Position numbers and translations under genes: made by a program
Shown here: positions 21,026-44,688 of the stretch, one piece after another
How positions within the stretch are numbered: the first letter of the stretch is position 1
Layout: the number at the start of each line of letters is the position of its first letter
Notes under the pieces: generated by a model
Databases searched by the model: none
Told to the model about the DNA's origin: nothing
What the model saw: the letters and a program-made list of their open reading frames with translations, nothing else
DNA from: Candidatus Cloacimonadota bacterium
GTDB taxonomy: Bacteria > Cloacimonadota > Cloacimonadia > JGIOTU-2
Reading direction: 5' to 3'
Assembly (NCBI GenBank): GCA_049903315.1
Contig: JBNGBT010000001.1
Coordinates: 224,001 to 288,000 of the forward strand
Length of the DNA stretch: 64,000 bases

Positions 21026-21862
21026 ATGAATAAAACAAGGCATTGGTATCAGTATGTAATTATTTATTCGATCCTGCTCCTTTTTGTTGCGATCTCAATT
21101 TTCCCGATCCTCCGTGTATTCACGATTTCCCTTCGTCCTGGAGATAACCTTCTCAATACATCTCTACGGATTATTCCCGAAGATGCAAGTTGGGCAAATT
21201 ATGTTCAACTCTTCACAGAAAAACCTTTCCTCACTTGGATACGAAACAGTTTGCTTGTTACTCTGGCAGTGACGGTAATTGGAGTTGCTCTCTCTTCAAC
21301 TGCCGGGTATGCCTTTTCCCGATATAAATTTCCGGGTCGGAGAGCAGGTTTGCTTGCCCTTCTTGTCACGCAGATGTTCCCGGCAACTATGCTTTTACTT
21401 CCTTTATATATTATGATCTCCAAATTGGGACTGGTAAATAGTTTTGTCGGATTGATAATTATGTACAGCGCATCGGCATTGCCTTTCTGTATCTGGCTTA
21501 TGAAAGGATATTACGATACGATCCCTTCAAGTCTGGAAGAATCGGCAACAGTTGATGGTGCAAGCAAATTTTATGCTTTCTGGAAAATTATTATTCCTCT
21601 TGCATCTCCAGCTCTTGTTATTACTGCCCTTTTCTCTTTCATGGCTGCGTGGAACGAATATGTGGTTGCGGCTCAGGTACTCTGGTATGAAGATATGTTC
21701 ACGATTCCTCTTGGACTGAAGAGTCTGCAGGGTAATATGACCACGCAATGGGGGATGTATGCAGCAGGAGCTTTGATAATAAGCATTCCTGTAATTGTTG
21801 TATTTTTAGTCCTCAGCAAATGGCTCGTTTCGGGCTTAACGCTGGGAAGTGTCAAAGGATAA
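21026..21862 (+). CDS. malG: Sugar ABC transporter permease (MalG-like)
   Basis: TQMFP, GYYDTIPSSLEESATVDGAS, AWNEY, C-terminal GLTLGSVKG. Confidence 0.9.
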   Translation: MNKTRHWYQYVIIYSILLLFVAISIFPILRVFTISLRPGDNLLNTSLRIIPEDASWANYVQLFTEKPFLTWIRNSLLVTLAVTVIGVALSSTAGYAFSRYKFPGRRAGLLALLVTQMFPATMLLLPLYIMISKLGLVNSFVGLIIMYSASALPFCIWLMKGYYDTIPSSLEESATVDGASKFYAFWKIIIPLASPALVITALFSFMAAWNEYVVAAQVLWYEDMFTIPLGLKSLQGNMTTQWGMYAAGALIISIPVIVVFLVLSKWLVSGLTLGSVKG

Positions 21863-21889: not shown

Positions 21890-24571
21890 ATGAAAAAATA
21901 TCTTATAATTTTAGTAATGATGCTCGTATTTGCAGGCTCTCTGCATGCAGCGATTGGCTGGAGTGGCGGTATCTGGCCGAATTCCTCTACCGATCAAACA
22001 AATGGTTTTGATATTACAGTATATTATCAAATCTGGAAAGATGGAGTGACAAGTCTCCCTGGAAGAGGGGACAGTCTTTCCGCAACGATCTTCTATAAAA
22101 CGCAATCACAACCTTCCTTCTCATCAGAAGCGATGACGTTCAATGTCGATGTTGGGAATAATGATGAATATTTTGGCATCATACCCAACGCTATTTTCAG
22201 TGCAGGAGACACAGTATTTTTCTATTGTGAAGGGTATGATTCCACAGACGCAACCTATTCTTATGGAAATGATCAAAATGGAGTGGGTCCATTTACAGAT
22301 ACTACTCCCGGAAGTTATAATATCGTTGCCGGATTAAATCAGGATGTAACAGTTACATTTCAGGTAGATATGACGATTGTTGATCCTGTGTATACCGTAT
22401 CCGTTGCCGGTTCTTTCAATGGCTGGACAGCAGGTGTCGATACGTTAAATGATGTCGGAAATAACATCTATTCTGGTGATGTGCTTTTCACTGCCGGAAC
22501 CAATCCATACCAGGAATACAAATTCGTGAATGGCTCGATCTGGGAAGATTATATATCAAACCGTATACTAAATATTGATGACTCTTCTCCAACAATGATC
22601 CTGCCGCCAGTGTATTTTAATGACATCCCACCTGATGAGATTTTTGTGACATTCCAGGTTGATATGACATTGCAGATATGGAATGACTGGTTTGTACCCG
22701 GTGTGGATACCGCAGCAGTAAGCGGTTCCATGAACGGATGGAATAAGTGGGAGCTGACTGATATAGACGGAGATGATATCTATACTGGTGAATATTCATT
22801 TTATGGATGTGTCAGCGATGTGATCGAATATAAATTCAGAATTAATGATAATTTTGAATTGTTTGATCTGCCGAATAGAAGTTTTACGATTGATGATACC
22901 GTAACCACAATACCTGTCGTATTCTATGATGATTTCAATCCTAATACTCCGACTAATCTTACCGCAGTTGTAGATGAATGGGACGTTGATCTTGCATGGG
23001 ATGCACCAGCAACCCGTGATGTTGATTATTATAATCTCTATCGTGATGATTCTGTTATTGCTCTTGTGTATCATCCAACCACGATTTTCACAGATACATC
23101 AGTGCCTTTTGGAAATCATGTATACTATGTTACTGCAGTGTATCCTGAAGGGCAATCACTTCCATCCAACACACAAACTGTTTTTGTCGGAACGAACACA
23201 CCTCCGGTCGCAGTTGCAGGTGATGATAAGACTGTGATCGAAGACCATGCAGTATATTTGGACGGCTCCGGCTCTTATGATCCTGATGGACTTCCAATAA
23301 CGTATCACTGGAGTGCTCCTGCAGATATTGTGCTTTCTGATTCCACTGCGGTCGATCCTTCTTTTGTAGCCCCAATGGTAGATGAGGATACTATTTTCAC
23401 ACTTTCTCTTATTGTGTTTGATGGAGAGCTTTACTCGGATCCCGATTATGTCGATATTACCGTTCTGAACAGTGTGCCTCCTACTGCTGATTTTTCTGCA
23501 TTTCCTTTAACGGGTTCCATTCCTCTTGAGGTAACTTTTACAGATGAATCCTATTCTAATATTACAGACTGGAATTGGAATTTTGGTGATGGTGAAACGA
23601 GCGAAGAGCAGAATCCGGTTCACACCTATACTTCAGCCGGAACATTCTCTGTAATTCTCACTGTTACCAATTTCTTTGGATCAGATACTATCACAAAATG
23701 GAATTACATTCATGTTACTTCAGTTCCTCTTGATCCTCCTACAAATCTTACTTACACGGTCAATGTCGATGATGTCACCCTTGACTGGGATGCACCAACA
23801 TCAGATGAACGGGATTTAACTTTTTATAAGTTGTACCGCGATGATGTCGTGATTGTTGTGATTTATCCTCCTACAACAATGTACACTGACACGAATCTAC
23901 CATTAGGCGAATATGCATACTTCGTGACTGCGATGTATCCAGAAGGCGAATCTGCACCCACCAATCCAGTGACAGTTTCTATTATAAATAATCCTCCTGT
24001 AGCAAATGCTGGTCCCGATCAAACAGTTGATGAAGGTGATTTTGTTCAGCTTGACGGCTCCGGATCATATGATCCTGAAGGGCTAACCTTGACCTATAGC
24101 TGGACTGCTCCTGCTCAGATAACCCTTGATGATCCTGCAATTGTCGATCCTAGTTTTACCGCACCTCTTGTGACGCAGGATGAGGTATTCCCAATTGAGC
24201 TCCTGGTGTTTGACGGCAATTCATGGTCTGAGCCTGACACAGTATTTATCACTGTTCGTGAGCTTATGGATGCAGGTGATCAACCTCAAAATTTCGAGAC
24301 AGCACTTCATGCAAATCATCCCAATCCCTTTACTACTTCCACATTAATTTCTTTCTCTCTAAAGGAAAATGCTCACGTAGAAATTGAAATATATAATATA
24401 AAAGGAGCGCATGTTGCATCACTGATTCGTGAAACATTGGAGACTGGAAATTATGAAATTGAATGGGATGGTACTGACCAGTTTGGGCATAATGTGTCAC
24501 CCGGAATTTATTTCTGTAGGATTTCTGCTGGTCAATACGTTTCCACGAATAAGATGATATTAATGAAATAA
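21890..24571 (+). CDS. Secreted non-catalytic protein: unnamed N-domain, 2x CBM20-like, FN3/PKD repeats, T9SS/FlgD-like CTD
   Basis: Signal peptide; VTFQVDM...VAGSFNGW...YKF twice; FN3 PTNLT...WDAP twice; PKD-type PVAxAG...LDGSGSYDP twice and WNWNFGDG once; CTD NHPNPF...IYNIKG...WDG...GIYF. Confidence 0.8.
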   Translation: MKKYLIILVMMLVFAGSLHAAIGWSGGIWPNSSTDQTNGFDITVYYQIWKDGVTSLPGRGDSLSATIFYKTQSQPSFSSEAMTFNVDVGNNDEYFGIIPNAIFSAGDTVFFYCEGYDSTDATYSYGNDQNGVGPFTDTTPGSYNIVAGLNQDVTVTFQVDMTIVDPVYTVSVAGSFNGWTAGVDTLNDVGNNIYSGDVLFTAGTNPYQEYKFVNGSIWEDYISNRILNIDDSSPTMILPPVYFNDIPPDEIFVTFQVDMTLQIWNDWFVPGVDTAAVSGSMNGWNKWELTDIDGDDIYTGEYSFYGCVSDVIEYKFRINDNFELFDLPNRSFTIDDTVTTIPVVFYDDFNPNTPTNLTAVVDEWDVDLAWDAPATRDVDYYNLYRDDSVIALVYHPTTIFTDTSVPFGNHVYYVTAVYPEGQSLPSNTQTVFVGTNTPPVAVAGDDKTVIEDHAVYLDGSGSYDPDGLPITYHWSAPADIVLSDSTAVDPSFVAPMVDEDTIFTLSLIVFDGELYSDPDYVDITVLNSVPPTADFSAFPLTGSIPLEVTFTDESYSNITDWNWNFGDGETSEEQNPVHTYTSAGTFSVILTVTNFFGSDTITKWNYIHVTSVPLDPPTNLTYTVNVDDVTLDWDAPTSDERDLTFYKLYRDDVVIVVIYPPTTMYTDTNLPLGEYAYFVTAMYPEGESAPTNPVTVSIINNPPVANAGPDQTVDEGDFVQLDGSGSYDPEGLTLTYSWTAPAQITLDDPAIVDPSFTAPLVTQDEVFPIELLVFDGNSWSEPDTVFITVRELMDAGDQPQNFETALHANHPNPFTTSTLISFSLKENAHVEIEIYNIKGAHVASLIRETLETGNYEIEWDGTDQFGHNVSPGIYFCRISAGQYVSTNKMILMK

Positions 24572-24576
24572 AAGAC

Positions 24577-24609
24577 GGCGCTCATTTCATTGCGGAGTGG
24601 GCGTCTTTT
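24577..24609 (+). terminator. Intrinsic terminator
   Basis: cgctcatttc/ggagtgggcg stem (with GU pairs) followed by tctttt, directly after the stop. Confidence 0.6.
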
Positions 24610-24614
24610 AAAAC

Positions 24615-24620
24615 TTGACA
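24615..24620 (+). promoter_or_regulatory. Putative -35 element
   Basis: TTGACA 55 nt before ATG 24670, with strong RBS ggagg. Confidence 0.5.
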
Positions 24621-24669
24621 TAAAATGAAAATAATTATGCTAAAATTAAAGACTTACTTGGAGGAACAC

Positions 24670-26064
24670 ATGAAAAAAATTATTATTTTTTCAGTTCTTA
24701 TTTTATTTGCCTTCTCCACTCTTCACGCAGTAATTGGATGGAGTGGAAATATTTGGCCAAATTCAGGATCAAATCAAACGAACGGTTCTGATATTACTGT
24801 GTACTATCAGATGTGGAAAGATGGAGCTACCGGTCCCGGCGGTCCAGCTCCCATGCTTTCAGCAACGATCTTTTATAAGAAATCAACAGAAACTACGTAT
24901 CAAGATCTCGCAATGACTTATAACGCACCTGTTGGAAATAATGACGAATACATGGGCGCAATTCCGGATACGTATTTTGGTTCCGGCGACATTATTCATT
25001 TCTATTGCGAGGGCTATGACTCCACTGACGCAACATATTCATACGGAACTGACCAGTCCGGCGCAGGTCCTTTTGATGCAGGAAATCCAGGTTCATATAA
25101 TATCGTAGGCGGCATAAGCCAGGATGTCACGGTTACCTTCCAGGTTGATATGAGCGTTGTGGGCCCAGTCGAACCAGTAACAGTAGCAGGTAGTTTCAAT
25201 GGCTGGAACGCCAGTGCTAATGAACTCACAGCACAGGGCGATGACATCTATGCAGGTGATGTACTGTTTACGGCAGGTACCAATCCAAGCCAGGAATATA
25301 AATATGTAAATGGCGGCAATTGGGAAGACCAGATCGGTAATCGAACACTTACTGTTGATGATTCATCACCCACAATGATACTACCGGTTGTATATTTCAA
25401 CGATCAGAACCCCAATGACTATACCGATATCGATGTCACTGTCACGATCAGCGTTGATGTAGCAGATTCTGTTGGTGCTGGTTATGTGTTTGACTCACTC
25501 GGTGTGTATGGGAATGTTGCTCCACTTGATTGGGATTTCGGTATCATACATAATGGATTGATAGAGATCATAACCGATGAACTGTGGACTGGAGAATTTC
25601 TTTTCCCTGCAGGATCATGGAAACATGTAGAGTTTAAACTTGGAAGAAATGGACTCGATCTCGAAGCCGGATTTGGAGAAAATCATACCTTTGATATTGA
25701 TGATTCAAGCCCAACCCAGCTCATAAGCTGCGTGTATGGAACAATGGGACCAGTCACCTCGATTGACGATCCACAAATGCAGGGTGACATATCTATGAAG
25801 AATGTTCCCAATCCCTTTATCAATGGCACGACAATTTCATTTTCTTTGAAATCACATGAATTCAAGAATGCTACTGTATCGATCTTCAACCTCAAAGGAC
25901 AACTTGTGAATGAGTTCAACACACAAACAAATCCTTTTGGACAGGGAGAAATTCATTGGAACGGAAAAGATCTTCAGGGCAAAGAACTGAATAGCGGTAT
26001 CTATTTCTATAAGGTTTCAACAGACGATGCATCCGAAATTCATAAAATGATAATGATGAGATAG
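24670..26064 (+). CDS. Secreted non-catalytic protein: unnamed N-domain, 2x CBM20-like, CTD
   Basis: Start MKKIIIF after ggagg; IGWSGNIWPNS domain; VTFQVDM..VAGSFNGW; GVYGNVAPLDW...VEFK; CTD NVPNPF...IFNLKGQ...SGIYFY. Confidence 0.8.
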   Translation: MKKIIIFSVLILFAFSTLHAVIGWSGNIWPNSGSNQTNGSDITVYYQMWKDGATGPGGPAPMLSATIFYKKSTETTYQDLAMTYNAPVGNNDEYMGAIPDTYFGSGDIIHFYCEGYDSTDATYSYGTDQSGAGPFDAGNPGSYNIVGGISQDVTVTFQVDMSVVGPVEPVTVAGSFNGWNASANELTAQGDDIYAGDVLFTAGTNPSQEYKYVNGGNWEDQIGNRTLTVDDSSPTMILPVVYFNDQNPNDYTDIDVTVTISVDVADSVGAGYVFDSLGVYGNVAPLDWDFGIIHNGLIEIITDELWTGEFLFPAGSWKHVEFKLGRNGLDLEAGFGENHTFDIDDSSPTQLISCVYGTMGPVTSIDDPQMQGDISMKNVPNPFINGTTISFSLKSHEFKNATVSIFNLKGQLVNEFNTQTNPFGQGEIHWNGKDLQGKELNSGIYFYKVSTDDASEIHKMIMMR

Positions 26065-26074
26065 AAGCCATATT

Positions 26075-27208
26075 ATGAGAAATTATTTAAATGCGAGATC
26101 CCGATTTTTACATCGGGGTCTCTTCTTTCTAATATTATTAACATTTTCTGTAAGCTCGCTGTATGCCACCACAGGTGATGATCTGAGTGACCGTATCATT
26201 ATAGACGGCTTTAGTGATGACTTTGCAGATAATGAGCGACTCTTTATTAAAACACCTCTTGCCGAATCTCAAGAGCTGGATGACGATTCCTGGTGGGGTG
26301 AATACAATGACGTCAAACAGATCGACCTTACGTGGGATCTCACCTATCTCTATGTCGCGATAGATGCCTGCTGCTGGGATAACAATGTGATCTATTACCT
26401 TGACGTGTATCCCGCTTACGGTATCCAGAATATGCTGGACTTGAATACATGGATGAGAGCATTCAAATTTTATGGTACTAATCCGGATTTCTTCCTTGCC
26501 ACATGGGATACCAATGATAATCCGCAGTTCTGGAAAATGCGGGAAGGTTCGTCTTTGCAGGCGGATGAAGTCTCTGTAAATGATTACTCGGCTTATAATA
26601 CAGGAAATCTCGGCAGGGCAATGGAAGCTGCAATTCCGTGGGAAGTTATCTATTATGATTCCCTTCACACAATGAAGGATTTTCCCACTCTGAAAATGCT
26701 CGCAGTGATCACCACCGGCTCAGATAATCTCGGCGGACCTGATGTCATACCGAATAATCTTGGCGGTATGCCAAGCGACGGCATCTCCACAGCAGTGCTC
26801 GATAATTATCTCGAGATATGTGTTGATTCTACGGGAGATGGGAGTCCGGATATTGGAATAAGCCCGAAAGAGCGGGTACACTTTTATAAAATCCCTCCCT
26901 TTGAAGAGCTTCCCCTTTCCGTCAGAAAGGTAATTTTTCCAGATGGGAAAGTCTTTGCTCCTTCCAAAGGGGAGAAGCTCTCATTCCAGATCGATCCCAA
27001 TCGTGTCAGTGCCTTCAATGTGGAAATATATGATGCACGAGGTGCCTATATCAGCAATGCTGAGCTTGTCGATCTCGAAACACAGGCATGGGAATGGGAC
27101 GGCACAAATAAGAATGGGAAGAGCGTTCCCTTCGGCATATACATCTTGAGAGTGGTCTCGGACTCTCAAGAGGTCAGCCATAATGAAGCGATTTCGGTAA
27201 TTAAATAA
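26075..27208 (+). CDS. Secreted DOMON/CBM9-like protein with FlgD-like C-terminal domain
   Basis: Signal peptide; IIIDG..DDF...LTWDLTYLYVAI...EAAIPW DOMON-like pattern; C-terminal VEIYDARG...WEWDGTNKNGKSVPFGIYILRV. Confidence 0.6.
   Translation: MRNYLNARSRFLHRGLFFLILLTFSVSSLYATTGDDLSDRIIIDGFSDDFADNERLFIKTPLAESQELDDDSWWGEYNDVKQIDLTWDLTYLYVAIDACCWDNNVIYYLDVYPAYGIQNMLDLNTWMRAFKFYGTNPDFFLATWDTNDNPQFWKMREGSSLQADEVSVNDYSAYNTGNLGRAMEAAIPWEVIYYDSLHTMKDFPTLKMLAVITTGSDNLGGPDVIPNNLGGMPSDGISTAVLDNYLEICVDSTGDGSPDIGISPKERVHFYKIPPFEELPLSVRKVIFPDGKVFAPSKGEKLSFQIDPNRVSAFNVEIYDARGAYISNAELVDLETQAWEWDGTNKNGKSVPFGIYILRVVSDSQEVSHNEAISVIK
26095..26130 (+). terminator. Terminator-like hairpin inside the 5' end of ORF 26075
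   Basis: gagatcccgat/atcggggtctc 11-bp stem followed by ttctttct. Confidence 0.55.
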
Positions 27209-27209
27209 T

Positions 27210-28058
27210 ATGAAAAAATGTAGAAATAAACGAATCGGATTTTTAGCTCTCTTTTTATTATTGATCCCAATCGGATTGCAGGCAGATTTTATTGGTATGA
27301 ACTGGGGGGCACGCCCCATGGCATTGGGTGAAGCGTATGTGGGTCTTGCAAACGATCCCTCAGCAGTTTTCTGGAATCCTGCAGGGCTTTCTTATGTGAG
27401 CCGTTATTCAGTTATAGCATCGCATCAAAATTTGTATGGCGTCAAAGACCTGTATAATGAAATGGTGGCAGTGTCCATTCCCCTGAAATTCGTGCACCTC
27501 GGACTGGGTTGGACCCAGATGAATCTTCTTCATGAATATTCCGAACAAAACATTGCGCTTTCTGCCGCAAGTATTATATGGTATAAGAACATCGCGATCA
27601 GGTTTGGTCTGAGTCTGGATAATTACTTCGTCAGTGTTCCGGGATATGATGATGCCAAGAATACCTCAACATTTGATGTCGATGCAGGTCTGATCACAAC
27701 TCCGCTGAAAAATTTGTCTTTCGGATTCACAGCCCGCAATCTTATTGAACGGAGTGTCACACTTGTGTCTGAAAGCGAGAAGATCAAAAGAAATTTTGCT
27801 CTTGGTGCACATTACCAATGGCGGGACGTGGTGAATTTCCTTTTAGATTATAATTGGGATAATGACGAGAGCAGTCTCCATTTTGGATGGGAGATATGGT
27901 TCTTTGATGTGTTCGCACCACGTATGGGATTAAATAGAGATTATTTGACTGTTGGCTTCGGTATTAAATCAAAGAACTGGACGCTCGACGGCGCAGTGTA
28001 TTCACACGAAGAGCTTGGCAGTACATACCGTCTTTCTTTTGGCGTTCAATTCAAATAG
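27210..28058 (+). CDS. PorV/PorQ-like (FadL superfamily) outer-membrane beta-barrel
   Basis: GARPMALGEAYVGLANDPSAVFWNPAGL signature; alternating beta-strand pattern; C-terminal YRLSFGVQF. Confidence 0.78.
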   Translation: MKKCRNKRIGFLALFLLLIPIGLQADFIGMNWGARPMALGEAYVGLANDPSAVFWNPAGLSYVSRYSVIASHQNLYGVKDLYNEMVAVSIPLKFVHLGLGWTQMNLLHEYSEQNIALSAASIIWYKNIAIRFGLSLDNYFVSVPGYDDAKNTSTFDVDAGLITTPLKNLSFGFTARNLIERSVTLVSESEKIKRNFALGAHYQWRDVVNFLLDYNWDNDESSLHFGWEIWFFDVFAPRMGLNRDYLTVGFGIKSKNWTLDGAVYSHEELGSTYRLSFGVQFK

Positions 28059-28080: not shown

Positions 28081-29592
28081 GTGAAAAAAAGTATATTATT
28101 TATTATTAGTTTTCTTGTGGTCTGTTCATTCTCCCTTCATGCACAGATACGGCTGGAAGGTTATCTCGAAAGTTCATTCGGCACGAAATATGAATCCGAC
28201 AGCTTCCATTGGAATATTTGGGATCCCGATTTCAAGGTTGAGTTCCGGTTATTTGCTCATCCTATTGCTAATTCTGAAGCGTATGTGAAATTCTATGGTG
28301 ATAAATGGAACGAGCATGGGCAGATGACGGATCATTCTGAAGCGATCCTTGCAGAAGCCCACCTTTCCTACAGGCAGGAAAAGAACGGATTCGGATTCAA
28401 TACGGTTTTGTTCACCCGGGAAAATAATCACTATTGGACGGATGGTTCTCTACTCAATGTACTAAATTCGGGCTCGGTCAATAATGACGGCAACGGGCAA
28501 GGTGTGAGGTTCGATCTCTGGGAACCCTGGGGCGGAAGCGCAACGTATGTGTTTTCAGATTTCTCGCAAGGAGACAGTGACGATATCCATCTTGTCAGAC
28601 TTAGGCAGAATTTGTTGAAGGATAAGCTCAAAACCGGAATGTTCTATCAGAGAAAAAATTATGGGATCGGTGATAAAAATTCCTACAATGAAGTATTTGC
28701 ATTTGATGAACATGCTGAGATCGGTAAATACCAAGTCAACTTTGAAATGGCTTTCTCCAGCGTTCCCTCAGAGCAGGATGTTAAGGATACCCTAAAATAC
28801 TACAGAGATCAAAGCAGTAAGTATTTTGAAGATGGCGATTACATCAGCGGACTTCGAGAATTTTTCAAAGGAAATGTCGCAGCAAAAATGGAGTTCCGCG
28901 GCTTCAGGGTTGGTCATCCCAATTTTGGCTACTGGTTTATCAATCCCGGCGTATGGACATATGGAAAATGCTATAAGAACTATATGGGTGAGAACAAATC
29001 AGATGAATTTGGCATCTGGGTGAATACCTACTATTTTGTTCCTCAAAGAGCTATAACGCTTACTTTGAATTACTCGCAAAACCAGAAGCTTGAAGGTGAA
29101 CAATATTCCACAGGAGTGAGTCTCGATCCTGTGAGAAATCTTTATGGAGAAGCATATATTGAATTTGTGAACGGCTTCAAGGGTAAGGTTTACTATAATA
29201 TGAAGGACGAGGTCTGGCACGGGAAAAATTATAAACATAATGATTTTTTTGCTGAGCTTTCTGTAGAAAACCGCTTGGCAAAATTACTGACACAGTTCAA
29301 AATAAAAGATATTGGTGAAACCTGGGAAAAACAAATTGCAGGTATTGAATGTGCTGTGAATCTCTCTGACCGCTGGCGGGCTTTTGCCCGTGGTCTTGTC
29401 GTGAATGACAGGGTCGGTTCTCGCATGAGCTTTTTCGGAGAGCTTCAATACCGCATCGGCGGCAATTCTGAAATTTATCTTCAATATGGTCCGAGCTGGT
29501 ATGGCGGATACGGACTCGTAAATGACGACAGTTTTGTGTCCGGCGGCACAATGCAGGATGAGATCAGAGTCGTTTTCAAAGCATGGTTTTAA
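28081..29592 (+). CDS. Putative outer-membrane beta-barrel protein, unknown family
   Basis: GTG start 28081 gives a signal peptide (..SLHA/Q); aromatic-rich amphipathic strands; C-terminal IRVVFKAWF beta-signal. Confidence 0.65.
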   Translation: MKKSILFIISFLVVCSFSLHAQIRLEGYLESSFGTKYESDSFHWNIWDPDFKVEFRLFAHPIANSEAYVKFYGDKWNEHGQMTDHSEAILAEAHLSYRQEKNGFGFNTVLFTRENNHYWTDGSLLNVLNSGSVNNDGNGQGVRFDLWEPWGGSATYVFSDFSQGDSDDIHLVRLRQNLLKDKLKTGMFYQRKNYGIGDKNSYNEVFAFDEHAEIGKYQVNFEMAFSSVPSEQDVKDTLKYYRDQSSKYFEDGDYISGLREFFKGNVAAKMEFRGFRVGHPNFGYWFINPGVWTYGKCYKNYMGENKSDEFGIWVNTYYFVPQRAITLTLNYSQNQKLEGEQYSTGVSLDPVRNLYGEAYIEFVNGFKGKVYYNMKDEVWHGKNYKHNDFFAELSVENRLAKLLTQFKIKDIGETWEKQIAGIECAVNLSDRWRAFARGLVVNDRVGSRMSFFGELQYRIGGNSEIYLQYGPSWYGGYGLVNDDSFVSGGTMQDEIRVVFKAWF

Positions 29593-29611
29593 CAGGATAT
29601 AAGGAGTAATA

Positions 29612-31555
29612 GTGAGAAAAGTAATACTTTTCATAATAATGTTTTGTTGGGTCAGCATGGCTTTTGCCGGTGTCTCGATAACAAAAAAAGGTGTGGAATT
29701 CTTTTATGAAGCACCGAATGCAGGTACGGTGTCCGTTGCTGGTGAATTCAATGAGTGGAACACGTCAGCACATGTCATGAAACTTGGTGATGACGGTGTG
29801 TGGAGAATTGTCATTCCGCTTTCTTCAGGTTCCTATATGTACAAGTTCGTTGCAGATGACAACTGGATTACTGATCCGGACAATCCCAAACAGAAGGATG
29901 ACGGCTATGGCGGTATGAACTCTCTTGTCGAAGTTACTGCTGGTGGTGAACTTATTGTGAGCAGCGAACCGGTGAAACAGGAAGGAATACGAACTTTGCT
30001 TAATCCGAAAGTGCTGTTTGACGGACGGATGTATTCACAAAATCTCTTTAATAAAGAAGATTATAATGACAAGCTGATGCTCGACAAACCCTTGTTCGAT
30101 ATCAATCTCGGCGTGAAGGTCAAATTCAATTCGCAGGTCGAGGGCTATACGGTCATGAATATCAACAACATCGCTGAAGGTGTTGATATGTGGAAAACCC
30201 ATCTGAATTTCAAACGAAGCTACCTCAAACTCGATACGCAATATTTTCTGGTGCAGGCATTCGATAAATACGGATTTCTTACCTTTGATGATCCTCTTCA
30301 CCTCGTGGGTGATATCGGCTGTAGAAGTTATAATTTCGGTTACGATGTGATGGGCATATATGGTCGCTCTAACCTGCCGATGTTCATGCTTCCAATTGTT
30401 GGAATTCCTATGCAATTTCAGGCAGAAGGAGTTTTTGCAGATAACGCAGGCGATGATGATACCGACATAAGTGCATTCAGGGGAAAAGTGTTCTTTGATG
30501 TGATACCGGAAACAACTTCTGTAAGGTTCGGATTCGGTGAATATCATGCACAAATGCCTGTGAGTACGACTTCTTCAAAGGAACATACAAGTAATGAATT
30601 TGATATACAGGCTTCTTATTCGATGGATCAACCCGGGTGGCAAAATCCGATGGAGTTCGTTTTATCTGGTGAATATTACCAATTCAAAGATACCGATAAT
30701 GTCAATATGGATTCATTGAAAACAGACTTTGCAAAAGGTGACAGAATATTTGCCGGGCTGGAAGTAAATTTCCCCGCAGCATTGAAGGTCTTTGCTCATT
30801 TCCAAAGAAACAAGCTTGAGTTCGCAAGAGATATCACAAAGAACCGGCTTACGCTTGGTGGAGAATTTTCTACAGAAAAGCTTGTTGCCAAAGTTGCAAT
30901 GAGTACGTGGAAAACAGATTTTGCGGACAGTCTTGTCACATGGAATGATTACTTTGTGTACATGGAAAAGACAGACGGAAACGGTCGTTGGTTCCAGAAA
31001 TATACAAATGTGCCTTATGCGCAGTATACACTTATGGGTTATGAAACTGCAATGTATTGGGATTTTCTGTTCGGGTATGATTTTGAACTCCTGAATCAGA
31101 AATTCCATGCCGGTTATGAAGGCAAAATAGCACAGCAGGATATCAAATACGAGCCCAAGTTGATCGAGAACATTGCAACTCTTCAATGGGATATATCACC
31201 TCAATGGTCACTCTATACCGATCTCCGTGTGCCGATATATAACGATCCATTCCTACAGGTTAAAACTGATTTCAGTGAGTGGAAGGATGTGTTCTGGTGC
31301 AATTTTACCAGTTTGACCTACCATCTGAGCAGAAGCATTGACCTCTCATTATACTGGGGCGTGAATCCCATAGCGCTCAGCAATGTGACCGATGAGTTTT
31401 TGCCGATCGGCAGATTCGAATATATGAATGAAATTGGAAATTTCGAGAACTATCTTGAAAACAGTTATACAGGACTCGGTGAACAGATACGAGAAGCTGA
31501 AAAGTCACTCACGGAAAAGCAGCGCATCGGCGTCGAAGCTGTATTGAGATTTTAA
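29612..31555 (+). CDS. CBM48-like glycogen-binding domain fused to a putative outer-membrane beta-barrel
   Basis: Signal peptide; VSVAGEFNEW...GVW...YMYKFVADDNWITDPDNP..DDGYGGMNS; then amphipathic strands ending IGVEAVLRF. Confidence 0.72.
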   Translation: MRKVILFIIMFCWVSMAFAGVSITKKGVEFFYEAPNAGTVSVAGEFNEWNTSAHVMKLGDDGVWRIVIPLSSGSYMYKFVADDNWITDPDNPKQKDDGYGGMNSLVEVTAGGELIVSSEPVKQEGIRTLLNPKVLFDGRMYSQNLFNKEDYNDKLMLDKPLFDINLGVKVKFNSQVEGYTVMNINNIAEGVDMWKTHLNFKRSYLKLDTQYFLVQAFDKYGFLTFDDPLHLVGDIGCRSYNFGYDVMGIYGRSNLPMFMLPIVGIPMQFQAEGVFADNAGDDDTDISAFRGKVFFDVIPETTSVRFGFGEYHAQMPVSTTSSKEHTSNEFDIQASYSMDQPGWQNPMEFVLSGEYYQFKDTDNVNMDSLKTDFAKGDRIFAGLEVNFPAALKVFAHFQRNKLEFARDITKNRLTLGGEFSTEKLVAKVAMSTWKTDFADSLVTWNDYFVYMEKTDGNGRWFQKYTNVPYAQYTLMGYETAMYWDFLFGYDFELLNQKFHAGYEGKIAQQDIKYEPKLIENIATLQWDISPQWSLYTDLRVPIYNDPFLQVKTDFSEWKDVFWCNFTSLTYHLSRSIDLSLYWGVNPIALSNVTDEFLPIGRFEYMNEIGNFENYLENSYTGLGEQIREAEKSLTEKQRIGVEAVLRF

Positions 31556-31567
31556 GGAGTCCGCATC

Positions 31568-31993
31568 ATGAAAAAAATAGTTGCATTTATCCTAGTTATT
31601 TCACTGCTTTTCCTTTCAGCATGTTCAATGAACTTCATCAAGAAGCGTTTGCCTGCTCCTCATCAAATACCGGGTGGAGGAATCCTGTTCCAGTTTGACG
31701 CTCCGTCTGCACGTATTGTCACTCTTTCGGGAAGTTTCCCTGATAATATGTGGAGTGGAACTGCATCTTCATCTGGAAGTTTCAATGAGAATATTGATAA
31801 GATGTATGATGACGGCACACATGGTGACAGGATCGCTGAAGACGGTATCTGGTCTATCGTGAAGCAGCTTGCTCCCGGCAGATATGAATATAAATATGTT
31901 ATTGACAGAAACACCTGGGTGAAAGACCCCAATGCGTTCGAAGTGATCGATGATGGTTACGGCGGAAGCAATTCTGTCCTGATCATAAATTAA
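31568..31993 (+). CDS. Small lipoprotein, single CBM48-like domain with DDGxxGDxxAxDG insert
   Basis: Lipobox LSAC; MYDDGTHGDRIAEDGIWS; YEYKYVIDRNTWVKDPN..DDGYGGSNS. Confidence 0.75.
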   Translation: MKKIVAFILVISLLFLSACSMNFIKKRLPAPHQIPGGGILFQFDAPSARIVTLSGSFPDNMWSGTASSSGSFNENIDKMYDDGTHGDRIAEDGIWSIVKQLAPGRYEYKYVIDRNTWVKDPNAFEVIDDGYGGSNSVLIIN

Positions 31994-32006: not shown

Positions 32007-32714
32007 ATGAAAAAAATATTTTTATTACTTTCCTTATTCGCAATCCTGTTCTATCTCGGGTGTGATAAAACACCCTATGAAATACCCTTCGATTCAATAC
32101 GAGCAGTTATTTTTGACGTTAATATGAAACTAAAAATTGATGATGGAACTTTCAATCCCGATACCGACACTTTAAGTATCAACGGCACTTTTAATAATTG
32201 GACTGCCCACGAAATGTACGACATAGATGATGACAGCATCTATACAAGTACTTTCCCGAACTTGATCAATGGAGGTACATATGAGTATAGATATGGTATT
32301 AATGGTGTTTTGGAAGATCTCGGTGGTGATAATAGGGTTTATACTGTAAAATCAGAAGATAATATTACAGCTGATTTCTATGGTGAGTTAGATCCAACAA
32401 TCGTTACATTTCAAGTTAATATGAATTATCAAGTCGAATTAGGATACTTCGTATTTGGTAGTGATTTTCTTGATGTCGCAGGAAATTTCAATAATTGGGA
32501 AGGTTCTGCCCATCTCGTCGATCTCGAAGGTGACGGCATCTATGAAATTACATATTATAACATGGTTCCTGATCAGCAATTAGAATTTAAATTCCGCATA
32601 AATGGTAGTTGGGACACAGCAGAATTTCCTGGAGGTGGTCCTAATAGAACATATACTGTTGTAGCCGGAGAGAATATTCCATATTATTGGTATAACGATG
32701 AACAACCTGAGTAA
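32007..32714 (+). CDS. Lipoprotein with two CBM20-like domains
   Basis: Lipobox YLGC; two copies of V.F.VNM...GxFNNW...DxDxDxIY...(Y/F).(Y/F).ING...NR. Confidence 0.75.
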   Translation: MKKIFLLLSLFAILFYLGCDKTPYEIPFDSIRAVIFDVNMKLKIDDGTFNPDTDTLSINGTFNNWTAHEMYDIDDDSIYTSTFPNLINGGTYEYRYGINGVLEDLGGDNRVYTVKSEDNITADFYGELDPTIVTFQVNMNYQVELGYFVFGSDFLDVAGNFNNWEGSAHLVDLEGDGIYEITYYNMVPDQQLEFKFRINGSWDTAEFPGGGPNRTYTVVAGENIPYYWYNDEQPE

Positions 32715-32768: not shown

Positions 32769-35687
32769 ATGAAACGTATACACTTTTTACTCCTTATCAT
32801 TCCGCTCATCCTCACAGGATGCGGAACACTGGGATTTGGCTCTTTCGAAGGTAAGCCACCTCAGACAGCGACAATAGCCCAAGCAGAGGGTGGCACAACT
32901 TTTTCATATGAAGCACCCGATGCAGCAAGTGTCTTTGTCGCAGGTGATTTTAATTCCTGGGATCCCCAGGCTGATCCTATGATCAAGCAGGACGATGTAT
33001 GGGTGATCACACTCGACCTAGAACCAGAATCATATCAATATAAATTTGTTGTGAATGGCTCGGAATGGATGCCTGATCCCAACAATCCCACGACTGCTGA
33101 TGACGGATATGGGGGACAAAATTCAGTAATAACAATTGGAGAGAAACCAATGGCAACTTTTGTTCAAGAAGAAACGAAACCACAAAGCGGTGTTTTTCCT
33201 GTCACCTTTGAATATCAACCTCTTACCGGTGGCAAACATGACGTGTACCTTGCTGGCGAATTTAATAACTGGTCAGACAAGGATATACAACTTAAAGAAG
33301 ATAACGGAATATACAAAACCACAGTTCAACTTCCCAAAGGTAAATTCACCTATAAGTTCGTTGTGGACGGCAACTGGGTAACTGATGAGAATGCAGCAGA
33401 ATTTATCGGCGATGGATTTGGCGGACAAAATTCCGTTGTATTCGTGGGTAAAAAAGAGGATATAGAAGCTCTTTATAAAGTAGAATTCTCATATCGTCCC
33501 GATAAAGAAGGTGTGAATGATGTGTATCTTGCAGGCTCTTTCAATGGCTGGAATCAGAAAGCCAATATGATGGAAGAAACTGAAGATGGGCTTTTTGAAA
33601 CGACCCTCCTTCTCAAGGGTGGAGAATATCAGTACAAATTCGTGGTGAACGGAACGGACTGGATCACAGATTTGAGCGTGTCCCGTTTTGGCGACGACGG
33701 ATTCGGTGGTCAGAATTCCATTTTAGACGTAGATGAACGCTATCCAAAAGTTCAGATAGAAATGAGCGACGGAAACGTTATGACGTATGGAATCCCGACC
33801 GATCAATCTCTGGAAACGATCAATCCGCTTTCCGATACAAAAATAGAATTCAAAGCCCGTGCACATCGCAACGACCTTGAAAATATTTATTTGTGGAAAG
33901 ACGGAGAAAAGATCGAGATGGATTTTGTGGATGCGGATGACACCTTTGATTATTATCATAAAATAATTGAACTTAGTTCACCTGATGATGAGTTTGATTA
34001 CTACTTCATTTATGTAGATGGCGGCAAGGAATTCTATCTTCTTAACGGCGCTTTGACCGAGAACTTTGATGAAGATATGGTATTTCATTATTCCAAGGAA
34101 GCAGTGGAGCCCTTCTTTACACCGGACTGGGTAAAGAACGGAGTTATTTACCAGATATTCTGTGACAGATTCTACAATGGCGACAAGTCAAATGACCAGG
34201 ATTTCACAGAATGGTATTATAAAGGCGTGAACCAGCCGCCAGCACCCGGAAAAAAATTACCGGCGAACAAACAATATTTCCACCTTGTTGATGACTGGTA
34301 TGATATTTCCAGTTTGAAAAGCAATCCATACAGACATGACGGCAAACCGGATTGGTGGTCATTTTACGGTGGTGACATCGAAGGTGTGCGTCAAAAGCTT
34401 GGCTACCTTGAAGACCTTGGAGTGACGATTATATATTTCAATCCACTCTTTGAAGCAAAGTCAAATCATAAGTACGATGCAGTGGATTATATGAAACTCG
34501 ATCCTCATTTCGGCACTCCGGAAGAGTTCAAGAAGTTTGTACAAGAAGCACATGAGCGTGGCATTCATGTGATCATCGACTGTGCTTTCAATCATACAGG
34601 CGAGACATTCTGGGCATTTCAGGATGCACTTGAAAAAGGACCCGATTCGCCCTACTGGCACTGGTACGAGATAAAGAAGTGGCCCCTGCCCGATCCTGTT
34701 CCTGCAAACTATAATCCCGCAGATTATTATGAATGCTGGTGGGGTGTAGGTGAGATGCCGGATCTCAACTGGGATCTGACACTTCCTAATCCTGCTGAAA
34801 ATAGTATTAAAAATATAGATGATGCCGATCCTAACTGGGATGTGGTGAACTATGTCCTCGATGTCGCAGATTACTGGATCAAAGACATGGATTGTGATGG
34901 TTTCCGTTTGGATGTACCGAATGAAGTTCCTTTCTGGTTCTGGGAGTTGTTCCGCGATAAAGTAAAATCTATCAAACCAGATGCATATCTCGTTGGCGAA
35001 CTCTGGGGCAATGCCACAGATTGGGTGAACAGCCACTATTTTGATGCAGTGATGAACTACGCCTTCTTCAAAGATCCTGTGATGCGTTTCTTCGCGATGA
35101 GAAGCTGCAGCGCTAAGACCTTTGACAGAGACATCAAGCAGGGCTTGCTTGCATATCCTATCCAGGCAGTGCAATGTATGATGAACCTCATAGACAGCCA
35201 TGATACATTCCGTTATCTTGAATCCATTAAAGGTGATCTTGGCAAATTAAGACTCACCATGCTTTTCTCTATGACCTATGTCGGTGCTCCCCATATCTGG
35301 TATGGCGATGAGATCGGCATGATGGGTGCTCATGATCCGGACTGCCGCAGACCAATGAACTGGAAATATACCGAAGATAAAGAAAAGGTCGCCCTGCGAG
35401 ACTGGTATAAAAAACTGATACAGATCAGGAAAAAATTCTCATGCCTACGCACAGGCGACTTCCATACAGTGCTTACGGACGGCATGGTCTATGCATATAA
35501 ACGAAGTGATGATAACTGCTCTATAACGGTGGTGATCAACAATGATACACAAGCTCATACAGTAAAAATTCCTTTCAATGAAGGACAGAAATCTGCAATA
35601 AATCTTCTGGATGATATGTCATTTCAAATTACTGATGGCGAAATCGAGATCACTCTCAAGCCAATGAGTGGTGCGATACTTAAATAA
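32769..35687 (+). CDS. GH13 neopullulanase/cyclomaltodextrinase-like lipoprotein with three N-terminal CBM48-like domains
   Basis: Lipobox LTGC; 3x AGxFNxW...YKFVV...DGxGGQNS; catalytic motifs DCAFNH, MPDLN, GFRLDVPNE, GELWG, IDSHDT, YGDEIG. Confidence 0.92.
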   Translation: MKRIHFLLLIIPLILTGCGTLGFGSFEGKPPQTATIAQAEGGTTFSYEAPDAASVFVAGDFNSWDPQADPMIKQDDVWVITLDLEPESYQYKFVVNGSEWMPDPNNPTTADDGYGGQNSVITIGEKPMATFVQEETKPQSGVFPVTFEYQPLTGGKHDVYLAGEFNNWSDKDIQLKEDNGIYKTTVQLPKGKFTYKFVVDGNWVTDENAAEFIGDGFGGQNSVVFVGKKEDIEALYKVEFSYRPDKEGVNDVYLAGSFNGWNQKANMMEETEDGLFETTLLLKGGEYQYKFVVNGTDWITDLSVSRFGDDGFGGQNSILDVDERYPKVQIEMSDGNVMTYGIPTDQSLETINPLSDTKIEFKARAHRNDLENIYLWKDGEKIEMDFVDADDTFDYYHKIIELSSPDDEFDYYFIYVDGGKEFYLLNGALTENFDEDMVFHYSKEAVEPFFTPDWVKNGVIYQIFCDRFYNGDKSNDQDFTEWYYKGVNQPPAPGKKLPANKQYFHLVDDWYDISSLKSNPYRHDGKPDWWSFYGGDIEGVRQKLGYLEDLGVTIIYFNPLFEAKSNHKYDAVDYMKLDPHFGTPEEFKKFVQEAHERGIHVIIDCAFNHTGETFWAFQDALEKGPDSPYWHWYEIKKWPLPDPVPANYNPADYYECWWGVGEMPDLNWDLTLPNPAENSIKNIDDADPNWDVVNYVLDVADYWIKDMDCDGFRLDVPNEVPFWFWELFRDKVKSIKPDAYLVGELWGNATDWVNSHYFDAVMNYAFFKDPVMRFFAMRSCSAKTFDRDIKQGLLAYPIQAVQCMMNLIDSHDTFRYLESIKGDLGKLRLTMLFSMTYVGAPHIWYGDEIGMMGAHDPDCRRPMNWKYTEDKEKVALRDWYKKLIQIRKKFSCLRTGDFHTVLTDGMVYAYKRSDDNCSITVVINNDTQAHTVKIPFNEGQKSAINLLDDMSFQITDGEIEITLKPMSGAILK

Positions 35688-35712: not shown

Positions 35713-38700
35713 ATGAATAAAAAATGTACAGCGGTGTTGATAGGATTTCTTCTTGTTGCGGTCAATGCATTCGCTTTTACGATAACAGGAGACATCTCGA
35801 GCTGGCAAAAAGAAGATTTTATCAGCTTTGATGAAGTGGGGGACTGCGTAGCATCCTGCGGAGATATTACATCCGTATTCTCACGAGTCGAAAATGGAAC
35901 ACTCTTTTTAAGGATTACTTTTGATGACATGGTCCAGCGATCGCAAAACCATATCGTGAAAGATAATTTCCATGAGAAAGATATTGCTGCTATCGTCACT
36001 ATCTATGCAGGCAAGGAGAAGAAAGCACTCTTTCATAAGGAATTTTCTATGCAAGCTCTTGAGCAGAAAAATGGAGATGAGAAAATTCTTAGAACACGTG
36101 AATGCAATACCGTAGAGCACTCTATTCCTTTCGTGACCGAATTTGCCAAAGAAGACCTGACCTACAAAATCGATGTCATTATTGATGGCACAATTGTGGA
36201 CAATTTTATCGGAAAAGGGCAGACGCTCTTTCGAGGTGGCAACTGTGCATTTGTTCATCACGGCAACCAGGGGTTGACCTATACCGAGGTTTTTTATGGA
36301 CAGTATCCCCAGGAAACAAGCGGTTTCGATGAAGTGCTTGAAGTGCATGAAGCGACAAATATTCCCGGCAATTTTCACATGTCCGGAACACTCATGCCTG
36401 CTGCAGAATGGCATAATCCTGAATTTAATGATTGGCTGGAAACAGGAGCTGCAAGCGGATGGGTGGCTATGATGACCTCTGCGCTCGGACAGCACATGAT
36501 GCCCTTTGTGCAGAATGATATGAATAACTGGTCTGTGAACATCGAATGCGATATGGTGGATTACAGGTATAACTATATTCCACGTGTTGCATGGGTTCCT
36601 GAGCGCGTATGGCTTAATCCCGGGCAGTATCCTGATGCGGGTGTAATCGACTGGCTTGGTGATAACTGGCAGCAGTACGGTGTCGATGCAGTTATTCTTG
36701 ATGACAGTCCCCATTGCTGGAATGTGAATAAGAACAAGATCCACTGGATGAATAACGGCAGCGGTGTGACGCTTCGCGTGATTCCTATTGATAATGAATT
36801 CGTAGGAAAAATGCACTATGATGCGGACGGTGCAAAAAACTATATAAATTCACAAGGACAATACGAAATTGTCGTGTATGGCACTGACTGGGAAGTTGCC
36901 GCAGAAATGAACGAGCACCACAACTCATTCTTCCTGGATAACTATGAAAGTGTGCTCTGGTACTGCCATGACAACTATCCTGCAATAAATGTATGGAAGC
37001 TTGATGCTGCTTTGGCAAACGCAGACTTCAATGGCAGCAGCTTCGATATTACTCCCGGAACATACGGGCTTCTCGGCGGTGGCGACGGATATGGAGGAAG
37101 TAATAATAGCTGGTACACCCAATGGGCTGGTGCAGAATCTCATTCGGATTATCACTCGCCGAAATGGACCTACGGATATATATGGAATGATGTCTATAAC
37201 AATATCATAACATGTCCCGATAATGGTCTTTCTCAGCTTGCATGGTACACGCTCATGATCAATCTTCATGAAACCGGATGGCATACAAGCGGCGAGATCG
37301 CTGATTGGGAGCATCGCTATTCTGCACATATGAAAAATGCAAATGTCTATGCAGAAGCATCTCGATGGGCAAATGGTGACTATGTAGAAACAACTGCATC
37401 CTATCTTTCTGATATTGATAAAGATGGTGTCGATGAACTCATTATGTATAATGATAACGCATTTTATGTATTTGAAACAATTGGAGGAAAAGCAAACTGG
37501 ATATTCGTCAAAGATGGTTCGGGTAATGGCTATTCTGTGGTCGGTTCGGATGTGGCATATTGGTCGGAATCCGACGGTGATTATAATGAGAGCTCCAATA
37601 ATCACGTTGCAGCACTTTCGGATGTGTCACCCAATTATCAGAACGATCTCTATGCAATGGTCGTAAATACAGGCACTGGTGACAGCGTACAGGCAACACT
37701 TACAAAAAATGAAGTGAGCAAAGTAATATCTCTTCAAACCGGCGATTCTCACCTCGAAGTTCAGTACAGTTTTGGCAATGAAACAGGATACGTGAAATCC
37801 GGCTGGTCTTCCGATCTTCTCGATCTTATCTGGTCGGGAAAATCCAATCTGCAAAGAATGTGGGGGGACTGGGGAGAATATTGCGGACAAAGAAATTCTT
37901 CTTCCGGCGCAACAGGTGCGATCGTGATCGGTGATGCAGGTGCAGAATTCAATACAGAATTCGAAGGTACACTTGTCAAAGGAGATGAGATAAAAGGACA
38001 GGGTAGCTTTGTCGTGTATCTTTTTGCAGGATTTACCAGTGCGCCCTATGATCCAAATAATAACAAAGTTGTAGAGCTTGATGCACTCGCGGATGAACTT
38101 CAGGATAGCTATGCACCGCGCATTGTGAACGAAGCAGCATACCTCGTGGGTGACAGTAAACTTCAGATCATTTATAACGAACCCGTTCAAGAATTAAGTG
38201 CGATTGACCCCGGTCATTATTCATTTCAGAATTTCACAGGTTCATATTCAATAAATAATATTCAATTTTCACATGAGCGAAAAGTGACAATCACAATTAA
38301 TGAAAGCTTCCAGCCCGGCGATCTTGGTGATGTCGTTGTCTCTAATGTGCTTGATCTGCATGGAAATCTCATTGATCCTGATTACGATACCGGAGCAGTC
38401 ACAGAAATTATTACACCACATGTTGTCGGCTCGATGAACGGATGGACACCCGGCAATCATGATTATGATTTCTTATTGATGGATAATGGTGTATGGCAGT
38501 CAGTGCTCTCGCTTCCCACAGGCAGTTATGAGTACAAGGTCATAGAAAGCAATAGCTGGAACGGCAATGACTGGCCCGGAGAAAATCAATCATTTGTTCT
38601 GGGAGAAGCATCGGTCATAACGATCTACGCGAATTGCGGTATTATGGTTGGAGAACAGAACTATGACGAGTATGTTTTCCACAGTCCAAATCCGCCTGTG

Positions 38701-41036: not shown

Positions 41037-41100
41037 CGCCCTTTAACCTGAGAGAGATGCACTTTACTTTCTGCAACGCATCTGAAAAGCTTGTGTGATA

Positions 41101-41525: not shown

Positions 41526-41580
41526 AGTGTATAAAGTATGTAGAGAAAATATTTGTGTTGTCAAATCCATGCACATTATT

Positions 41581-44500: not shown

Positions 44501-44688
44501 TTGAAGTTTACAATGTTAAAGGTCAATTAGTAAGGTCATTAGAAATTAGAAATTTGAAATTTGAAATTAGTTCTGTGACTTGGGATGGTTGTGATAATAA
44601 CAACAACGCTGTATCCCCGGGTGTTTATTTCTATAAGGTAGAAGCAAAAAATGAAAGCTTCATACATAAAATGTTATTAGTAAAATGA
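41581..44688 (+). CDS. Secreted GH119/GH57-like alpha-amylase with CBM25-like module and CTD
   Basis: Start MKKAIL at 41581; WHLQQP, SKGFWPAECSFSERII (Glu), SHLART..DYP, MAHDGDN (Asp); IHLGRNGW...FCFHDG..WDNNNGQDW; CTD NYPNPFN..VYNVKGQ. Confidence 0.72.
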   Translation: MKKAILFVLLVIISNIGVSAPVHTTYLWHLQQPIYWPDKGTWNAFRYQTCWESQWLKNNNGNWYSDGLQHPLNDLEDIFNKADRVAAYQWRSKDAVQTLLSLSDAGAQVNYSGCLIENVQSLADGGQWGYSSGWQGNFQTARSWQTSGGNPRMDITAFTFHHALAPLIDENALHKEIQTHRYIYNQFFGNTPVYSKGFWPAECSFSERIIQTLVEEGIEWSVIANSHLARTCQDYPLSYGTSGCNIDPPNPADILGPIGSNWWSGQIDGRGGTFAAPFCYQAHKANFVDPETEQVYTIDVIPMADVLSYTNGYGTMGTGEIDSHIAPYNNPSQPSIVLMAHDGDNAWGGGYDYYMNSVPNFANAAASQGYIPSTVQQFLDNNPVPADDIVHVEDGSWVNAAIDWGHPQFINWIWPMYDGNYQFDPFGWTEDVRNWAVITAAQNRVETAEDLVGSVDVSKIVFPDASANNAELAWHFFLPSLTSGYMYYGTSLDMEVKQTIACNNAAEYADYEIDAHPGEDDVAPTLFIPQRFPYNPGGEGFGPLFGYQTHQNSSDFYVWTFVYDVSGLSSVELKYRIDNDGTNPLDSYDNETYAGGSEVGTWHSITMSMRNFPTGNVTGNPAVDFFVLPDYISDEYYAEISGYTDCLMDYYVQAEDNHGNVKKSPIQHVYVGSGGGSTQSYVQWTPEEPQVGDELTISYGPDGSLYDAAQLQIHLGRNGWQNVDDHAMTLNAQDTVWTYTYTIENGTTVIDFCFHDGQGNWDNNNGQDWHVQVQGASVPFIMDGVVDAQAELVAFTSELELWAAVDNDWCYVACTPAGSTTDLFMMITSELSQMTSAPWAKAGQVAQWDLFLAQEGSNGYNAWYDNEGTTGVAFNSVLEGYFSIAMELGAVDSFYIAIGEYGTNDGGALQEQLPTGNGDGDINFDEYFTYNIPVVSIDPQNPQPTIHTWNYPNPFNNSTKIFFNIDSSQKVKSVEVYNVKGQLVRSLEIRNLKFEISSVTWDGCDNNNNAVSPGVYFYKVEAKNESFIHKMLLVK
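44538..44570 (+). repeat. 7-bp tandem repeat ATTWGAA inside CTD coding sequence
   Basis: attagaa attagaa atttgaa atttgaa attag, encoding LEIRNLKFEIS. Confidence 0.75.

Follow-up and report, generated by a model that had tools for sequence, protein, structure and literature searches.

Introduction

LamB is an 18-stranded barrel in which strand 5 is followed by a long loop and the lumen has an aromatic (greasy) slide and a polar track; it is a maltodextrin-blocked passive channel that forms homotrimers. The Sus systems of Bacteroides are built from SusC/SusD and SusE/F/G. According to the available text of PMC13543919, uptake by Mal ATP-binding cassette (ABC) systems in diderm bacteria depends on a porin. 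Here we analyse a 64,000-nucleotide stretch of Candidatus Cloacimonadota bacterium (assembly GCA_049903315.1, contig JBNGBT010000001.1, positions 224,001-288,000 of the forward strand), referred to below as the window. In it, two adjacent genes for outer-membrane barrels, A (window positions 28081-29592) and B (29612-31555), lie in a five-gene cassette. The barrel pair and its starch-uptake cassette are real and conserved and have apparently not been described before. On balance, and with limited confidence, we favour the view that the cassette is an energy-independent outer-membrane import module for starch or glycogen fragments, feeding MalEFG(K). The observations behind this view are the folds, homology, an intact CBM48 (carbohydrate-binding module, CBM) domain, gene order and co-occurrence.

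Anaerobic degraders of the Cloacimonadota and of related uncultured phyla are common. The available text of a Cloacimonadota genome paper (PMC8542988) describes starch use and a Mal permease with a binding protein; the word 'porin' is absent from that text. In the available text of PMC11285876, the phylum is listed among phyla that may carry a type IX secretion system (T9SS). No description of these barrels or of the cassette was found in the literature searched, which left out supplements, a possible site of gene annotations.

With the LamB/MalEFGK system of E. coli the cassette loci share a plug-less barrel, GH13 enzymes and an ABC importer of the MalE/MalF/MalG/MalK type; in A, too, strand 5 is followed by a long loop, and conserved aromatics on the predicted lumen face recall the greasy slide. 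They differ from it in barrel size (about 24 and 22 strands), in having two barrels, in the CBM48 fusion and in the presence of a T9SS cargo with its anchor. Like Sus, the cassette lies in a starch locus that encodes enzymes for the cell surface, lipoproteins with CBMs and a large barrel; B has a predicted barrel of about 22 strands behind an N-terminal domain, and that of A has about 24. However, the cassette is without a plug (PF07715), a SusC match or SusD, no TonB/ExbBD genes were seen in it, its loci have an ABC importer, and surface display is by T9SS parts. The T9SS type B pairs (SprB-SprF, PG1035-PorP) are similar in that a cargo gene directly precedes the gene of a PorV/PorP-like barrel; this order of cargo and shuttle-barrel genes is described for F. 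johnsoniae in the available text of PMC12618676 and in the abstract of PMC9143113. In contrast to those pairs, the one found here heads a sugar-uptake cassette, FlgD_ig scores above CHU_C in it, and the barrel stays below all family cut-offs.

Barrel A is a large barrel without a plug

The open reading frame (ORF) of A begins with GTG and encodes 503 residues ending in ...KAWF. A TTG start at 27952 was rejected: it overlaps the upstream gene, and homologues start at the position of 28081. B, with 647 residues ending in ...VLRF, begins with GTG behind an AAGGAG site. Both N-termini carry a basic and hydrophobic, signal-peptide-like stretch (read by eye). The two ORFs, the signal-peptide-like N-termini and the terminal Phe are present as described in a prediction made earlier from the letters of the window (the original prediction). 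Both proteins had been taken there for barrels, and AlphaFold2 models agree.

The model of A (predicted local distance difference test, pLDDT, 93; predicted template modelling score, pTM, 0.83) is barrel from the first to the last residue, with strand 1 directly after the signal peptide and 24 strands as read from its DSSP string. A loop of 27 residues follows strand 5, a helical one follows strand 11, and 24 residues precede the last strand; by analogy with porin topology, these loops would fold inward and narrow the lumen. Residues were assigned to the inward or outward face from the alternation of hydrophobicity rather than from coordinates, and since the alignment of A is not of the same depth as that of B, patterns are to be compared only within each protein. 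On the predicted lumen face of A, 13 aromatic columns are at least 70% conserved, eight of them also in a diverse set of homologues, and about 20 basic and 17 acidic columns are conserved as well. The inward face is more conserved than the outward one on 23 of the 24 strands.

Neither A nor B matched a plug family at E ≤ 0.1, which bears out the absence of a plug claimed beforehand, and neither matched LamB (PF02264); A had no meaningful Pfam family match. When 92 diverse A-family and 37 B-barrel sequences were compared with Pfam, only scattered single matches appeared (Porin_4 in two of the 37 B sequences); none of the A-family sequences matched NCBIfam, and profiles of A and B found no match among PDB sequences. 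A match to a characterised porin family, named beforehand as a refutation, was thus seen for neither protein. Foldseek and VIA-align gave no standout family among those on their lists, which leaves room for a family absent from them. A search of the ESM Atlas returned unnamed clusters together with DUF6029 and Treponema Msp leads. Homologues of A form 208 clusters at E ≤ 0.001, with names including Krumholzibacteriota, Latescibacterota, Elusimicrobiota and Hydrogenedentota. Two distant members (P0214 and P0215) have an extra N-terminal domain of 170-200 residues; because that of P0214, from Elusimicrobiota, is CsgG-like, the A barrel family appears to take different periplasmic modules.

In structure searches A matched generic barrels. 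Ushers were best (Z 17-19, root-mean-square deviation, rmsd, 4-6 Å, 7-10% identity), the top one with Z 18.9, rmsd 4.1, 375 aligned residues and 8% identity; AlgE was also among the fold matches (Z 14.3). A equals the fimbrial ushers PapC and FimD in strand number and size, but it is without the usher plug insertion or periplasmic N- and C-domains, and no chaperone or pilin genes were recognised near the cassette. The usher and generic barrel matches of A and B mirror barrel size, not family.

Barrel B carries an intact CBM48 domain

The original prediction had seen a CBM48-like module in B. It is intact: residues 20-109 match, in both cases above cut-off, CBM_48 (PF02922, E 6e-11, 43 bits) and AMPK1_CBM (PF16561, E 5e-13, 49.5 bits). 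One or the other family was found in 57 of 58 B homologues, the exception being a 539-residue sequence that covers 86% of the barrel; another homologue (L169, G218:C68) has two CBM48 domains in tandem. Residues W49, K78, W85, Y99 and N103 are near-invariant in 51 homologues. Four of them, W49, K78, W85 and N103, are identical in the glycogen-binding domain of AMPK beta-2 and occupy what we take to be its glucan-binding positions; Y99 is Leu there.

In the AlphaFold2 model of B (pLDDT 83, pTM 0.69) the CBM48 is well formed, and the linker and first strand fall below 50. We read 21 strands from the model and added a first one from the alignment to strand 1 of A, giving about 22. Over the N-terminal two-thirds of B, structure searches matched generic porins of 16 to 18 strands (Z 14-15), and over its full length they matched TonB receptors (2hdf, Z 13.5, rmsd 4.0, 320 aligned). 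By standard outer-membrane protein topology, an even number of strands and a terminal Phe in the periplasm would place the N-terminal CBM48 of B in the periplasm or the lumen. In the original prediction this domain captures or gates glucans; placed there, it would be a trap or a plug rather than a surface catcher.

The conserved part of the outward face of B lies on strands 18-22 and 1-5 (entropy 1.3-1.8; other strands, 2.2-2.9), whereas strands 6-17 are variable on both faces. A docking face would be expected to show such a pattern.

Homology of A and B

A comparison of A with B by single-sequence BLASTP gave nothing significant, hhalign with profiles of close homologues gave 19% probability, and first-round hidden Markov model (HMM) cross-searches were weak (best E 0.008 among 315 proteins). 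A diverse A profile was then built from 93 sequences below 55% identity, filtered from 185 near-full-length matches. With diverse profiles hhalign gave 95% over 400 columns, and with a more diverse B set 97.1% (E 5e-11), against 0.4% and 1.2% for reversed profiles and at most 8.3% in 20 of 20 block shuffles. All eight motifs quoted in the original prediction occur in the sequences, and its motif pairs are colinear, being aligned in register. The first pair lies in the loop that follows strand 5, the second on strands 7-8 and the third on the strands before the last long loop.

As a control with real barrels, DUF6029-like proteins of the same phylum reached 85% against A (E 6.5e-6, 365 columns) and 0.3% against B. 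Above 15 bits the A HMM found 9 of 29 DUF6029-like proteins, the best at 30.1, and 12 of 65 B barrels, the best at 31.5; of 65 reversed B sequences it found none. These comparisons support the homology of A and B. The claim that they are tandem paralogues stands in that respect; origin by tandem duplication is plausible but unproven, since DUF6029-like barrels reach scores with the A HMM that equal those of B barrels.

DUF6029-like barrels, of about 480 residues, probably share colinear homology with A; they differ in that A and B lie outside PF19494 (no match among 92 A-family and 37 B-family members) and B shows no similarity to them. The DUF6029 match of the source genome is a separate gene elsewhere, and such a barrel is found in 55 of 61 genomes of the phylum. 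This near-universal barrel has a CxxxxC motif in its last loop, and one copy (L135, G000:C22:35056-38718) comes after a gene for a thioredoxin-like protein whose tail, as read by eye, is TonB-C-like.

The barrels belong to a five-gene cassette

A metagenome scan with a distant clade contributed 80 loci, some of them high-GC. We examined 103 loci, of which 76 were distinct after dropping those with an A at least 90% identical. Close relatives are on contigs titled Candidatus Cloacimonadota, and the high-GC loci have about 40-50% identity to a protein named from Candidatus Eisenbacteria. Counting only distinct loci with enough flanking DNA, the PorV/PorP-like barrel gene is immediately upstream of A in 57/57, the core cargo gene at most two genes upstream in 47/47, B immediately downstream in 59/60 and the CBM48 lipoprotein gene downstream in 41/42. 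The high-GC subset gave 20/20 for the PorV-like barrel, 15/15 for the cargo, 19/19 for B and 11/11 for the lipoprotein. Cassette order is near-invariant across Cloacimonadota and the high-GC lineages, and the conserved unit is therefore five genes: cargo, PorV/PorP-like barrel, A, B and CBM48 lipoprotein. The upstream barrel and cargo, linked to A as tightly as B is, had been missed in the original prediction; its context of alpha-glucan use is supported. A GH13/GH57 catalytic domain or a Mal gene occurs in 25 of the 30 distinct loci that are 12 kb or longer. The genes in the window are as follows.

18729..21017, + strand, sugar-binding protein fused to an ABC permease (MalE-MalF-like); SBP_bac_1 and BPD_transp_1
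21026..21862, + strand, MalG-like ABC permease; BPD_transp_1; retained in related loci
21890..26064, + strand, pair of secreted proteins carrying T9SS-type C-terminal domains as well as putative starch-binding repeats; Por_Secre_tail / FlgD_ig
26075..27208, + strand, core gene 1, T9SS-type cargo; 260-residue N-domain and FlgD/CHU_C-like C-terminal domain
27210..28058, + strand, core gene 2, PorV/PorP-like barrel; NF033709 under cut-off (E 2e-17), PorV 6h3i_F profile match E 2.6e-8
28081..29592, + strand, core gene 3, barrel A, plug-less, about 24 strands; AlphaFold2 pLDDT 93, pTM 0.83
29612..31555, + strand, core gene 4, barrel B: CBM48, flexible linker, about 22 strands, two long helical loops; AlphaFold2 pLDDT 83
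29669..29938, + strand, CBM48 of the AMPK-beta glycogen-binding type at the N-terminus of B; Pfam match
31568..31993, + strand, core gene 5, small CBM48-like lipoprotein; AMPK1_CBM E 1.5e-4
32007..32714, + strand, lipoprotein with two CBM48/X25-like domains; Pfam; different lipoproteins occupy this slot in other loci
32769..35687, + strand, GH13 lipoprotein with three N-terminal CBM48 domains; Pfam
35716..39306, + strand, GH57-like enzyme carrying X25 domains in addition to a T9SS-type C-terminal domain; GH57 E 3e-4
41527..44688, + strand, second GH57 enzyme with a T9SS-type C-terminal domain; GH57 E 4e-13

The core cargo combines an unclassified, highly conserved N-domain, which found no match in Pfam or among PDB sequences, with a C-terminal domain matching FlgD_ig in 26 of 37 members and, weakly, CHU_C in 14 of 37; it is a candidate surface glycan binder or lid. 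Core gene 2, with weak PorP_SprF matches in 14 of 39 members and 63.6 bits for NF033709 against a cut-off of 90, probably encodes a shuttle or anchor dedicated to the cargo upstream. The genome holds at least 13 genes for PorV/PorP-like barrels that match the anchor-barrel profile, which suggests many dedicated cargo-shuttle pairs. In the core lipoprotein, the N-terminal tether after the lipidated Cys (window 31568-31660) has the consensus C-S-L/M-N-F-I/V-K-K/R-R-L. It is common to both lineages and unusual for a lipoprotein linker, and its conservation suggests a docking peptide.

Outside the core, the secreted-protein pair at 21890..26064, the second member of which has a weak CBM_48 match, is the variable part, its presence differing among loci. 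In Cloacimonadota loci the MalF-like permease and the sugar-binding protein form one fused protein, whereas in high-GC loci the sugar-binding protein has a gene of its own; a MalK-like ATPase ends several loci. A GIY-YIG nuclease-like ORF of 101 residues (read by eye) lies at window positions 41095-41400 among the secreted-protein genes. In two loci (L049:4777-5444 and L050:5378-6053) A and B are separated by an insert of one or two genes, resembling a DUF4258/MqsA-type toxin-antitoxin pair, together with a duplicate of the last 42 codons of A. A is frameshifted in two genomes (L052, G140:C31; L170, G172:C64), through decay or assembly error. A promoter/terminator scan of the locus stayed at chance level, and a scan of viral contigs found no relative. 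No RNA holder is recorded for the cassette region, a result that is silent on its expression.

Distribution across the phylum

In the source genome, which is 96% complete, A and B are each single-copy. Among 232 Cloacimonadota genomes A was found in 27, and B and the core cargo each in 26, all A-positive. The operon MalE orthologue was found in 28, of which 26 also have A; 203 have neither. In both MalE-only genomes the contigs break off inside the operon. Related genomes are not independent observations, and common operon membership by itself yields such co-occurrence. SprA, a T9SS component present in the source genome, was found in 205 of the 232; since A occurs in 27, A and B are not general T9SS parts.

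LamB (PF02264) was found in none of the 232 genomes, the E. coli control being positive. SusD (PF07980) was found in six, one of them A-positive with SusD on another contig, and was not found in the source genome, which has no SusC over cut-off and three TonB-plug matches, all on other contigs. Judged by gene content, the barrels appear to travel with sugar import, not with general secretion, and to occupy the slot expected of a maltoporin. The original prediction had them replace SusC/D; the slot appears to be that of LamB rather than SusC because the barrels are partnered with a MalEFG(K) transporter of the ABC kind.

Proposed mechanism and alternatives

In the scheme that we propose, T9SS-secreted GH57 enzymes and binding proteins would cut and hold the polymer outside the cell, with the core cargo held at the surface on its own PorV/PorP-like barrel beside the pore. 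Maltodextrins would diffuse through A, whose wide lumen would be narrowed by the conserved loops and lined by aromatic and charged residues. B would dock on A through its one conserved face, giving a complex like the hetero-oligomeric pore of the original prediction, and hold its CBM48 in the periplasm, where this domain and the CBM48 lipoprotein could trap emerging chains, a sink or ratchet instead of TonB energy. From what is known of the families, the CBM48-GH13 lipoprotein would then trim the chains and MalEFG(K) would import them.

Several observations weigh against this scheme. The inward and outward assignment follows hydrophobicity alternation and is ambiguous on strands 5, 7, 8 and 13 of A; the first strands of B are of low confidence; and the closest solved shapes to A are protein-exporting ushers. 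Five of the 30 long loci show neither enzyme nor Mal gene in the stretch covered, and two near-duplicate high-GC loci (L057 and L059) run on into unrelated genes. In G140 the frameshifted A is parted from B, which is on another contig, and is followed by a DUF3160 gene. The label 'maltodextrin' for the sugar-binding protein is taken from context.

Import could also proceed with a CBM48, that of B or of the lipoprotein, as a plug in the 22- or 24-stranded lumen that is displaced by glucan, as in a TonB receptor but without TonB. Ushers are plugged by a beta-sandwich, and A equals them in size; B has the layout of a small N-terminal domain and about 22 strands and aligns over its full length with TonB receptors (2hdf), while the conserved tether peptide of the lipoprotein would also suit such an arrangement. 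We nevertheless consider a plug unlikely: with the linker and first strand of B below pLDDT 50 and pTM at 0.69, the model gives the CBM48 no defined position, the two CBM48 copies in the G218 homologue suit a tether better than a single plug, and the long conserved loops could already narrow both lumens.

A different cargo for the barrels, namely proteins, would make A and B a T9SS accessory that exports the CBM lipoproteins and enzymes of the locus or scaffolds them at the surface. The constant neighbours of A (PorV-like barrel 57/57, cargo 47/47), ushers as top structural matches and SprA in the genome point in this direction. However, SprA occurs in 205 genomes against 27 for A, the Mal ABC system would be left without an identified outer-membrane entry, the near-invariant putative sugar-binding site on B would go unexplained, and usher similarity at 7-10% identity reflects barrel size; such a role seems to us quite unlikely. 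Export of an alpha-glucan as capsule or slime, in the manner of AlgE or Wzi and with a periplasmic CBM48 feeding polymer into the pore, is very improbable. A is probably homologous to DUF6029-like barrels (85%), for which a role in polysaccharide secretion is suggested in the available text of PMC9603273, AlgE is among its fold matches (Z 14.3), and a GT4 glycosyltransferase gene lies upstream in the window. Yet that gene is outside the conserved cassette, the linked transporter has a solute-binding protein, as is typical of importers, and the enzymes found with it are hydrolases. BLAST against the window genes and Pfam searches of 16 selected ORFs, which were not exhaustive, revealed neither an OPX nor a polymerase gene in the loci.

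Returning to uptake of starch fragments, the cassette may be a variant on the pairing of a porin with an ABC system, and there is a fair chance that it forms a new class. More specifically, and only tentatively, since we doubt it more than we believe it, it could be a third class of glycan importer in the outer membrane, next to LamB-type porins and SusCD: a heteromer of 24- and 22-stranded barrels, with a T9SS-delivered glycan-binding lid on a dedicated PorV-like barrel outside and CBM48 gating or ratcheting inside, moving large or branched alpha-glucans without TonB.

Implications

With LamB found in none of the surveyed genomes of the phylum and SusD in almost none, the cassette offers a concrete, expressible candidate for the entry route of starch fragments across the outer membrane. 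If the proposal is true, A and B would represent a new family of sugar channels, very large and without a plug, in which a carbohydrate-binding module does the work of a plug or an energy source and the shuttle-cargo principle of the T9SS is tied to nutrient import. A wide, sugar-selective barrel of this kind could also serve as a glycan nanopore.

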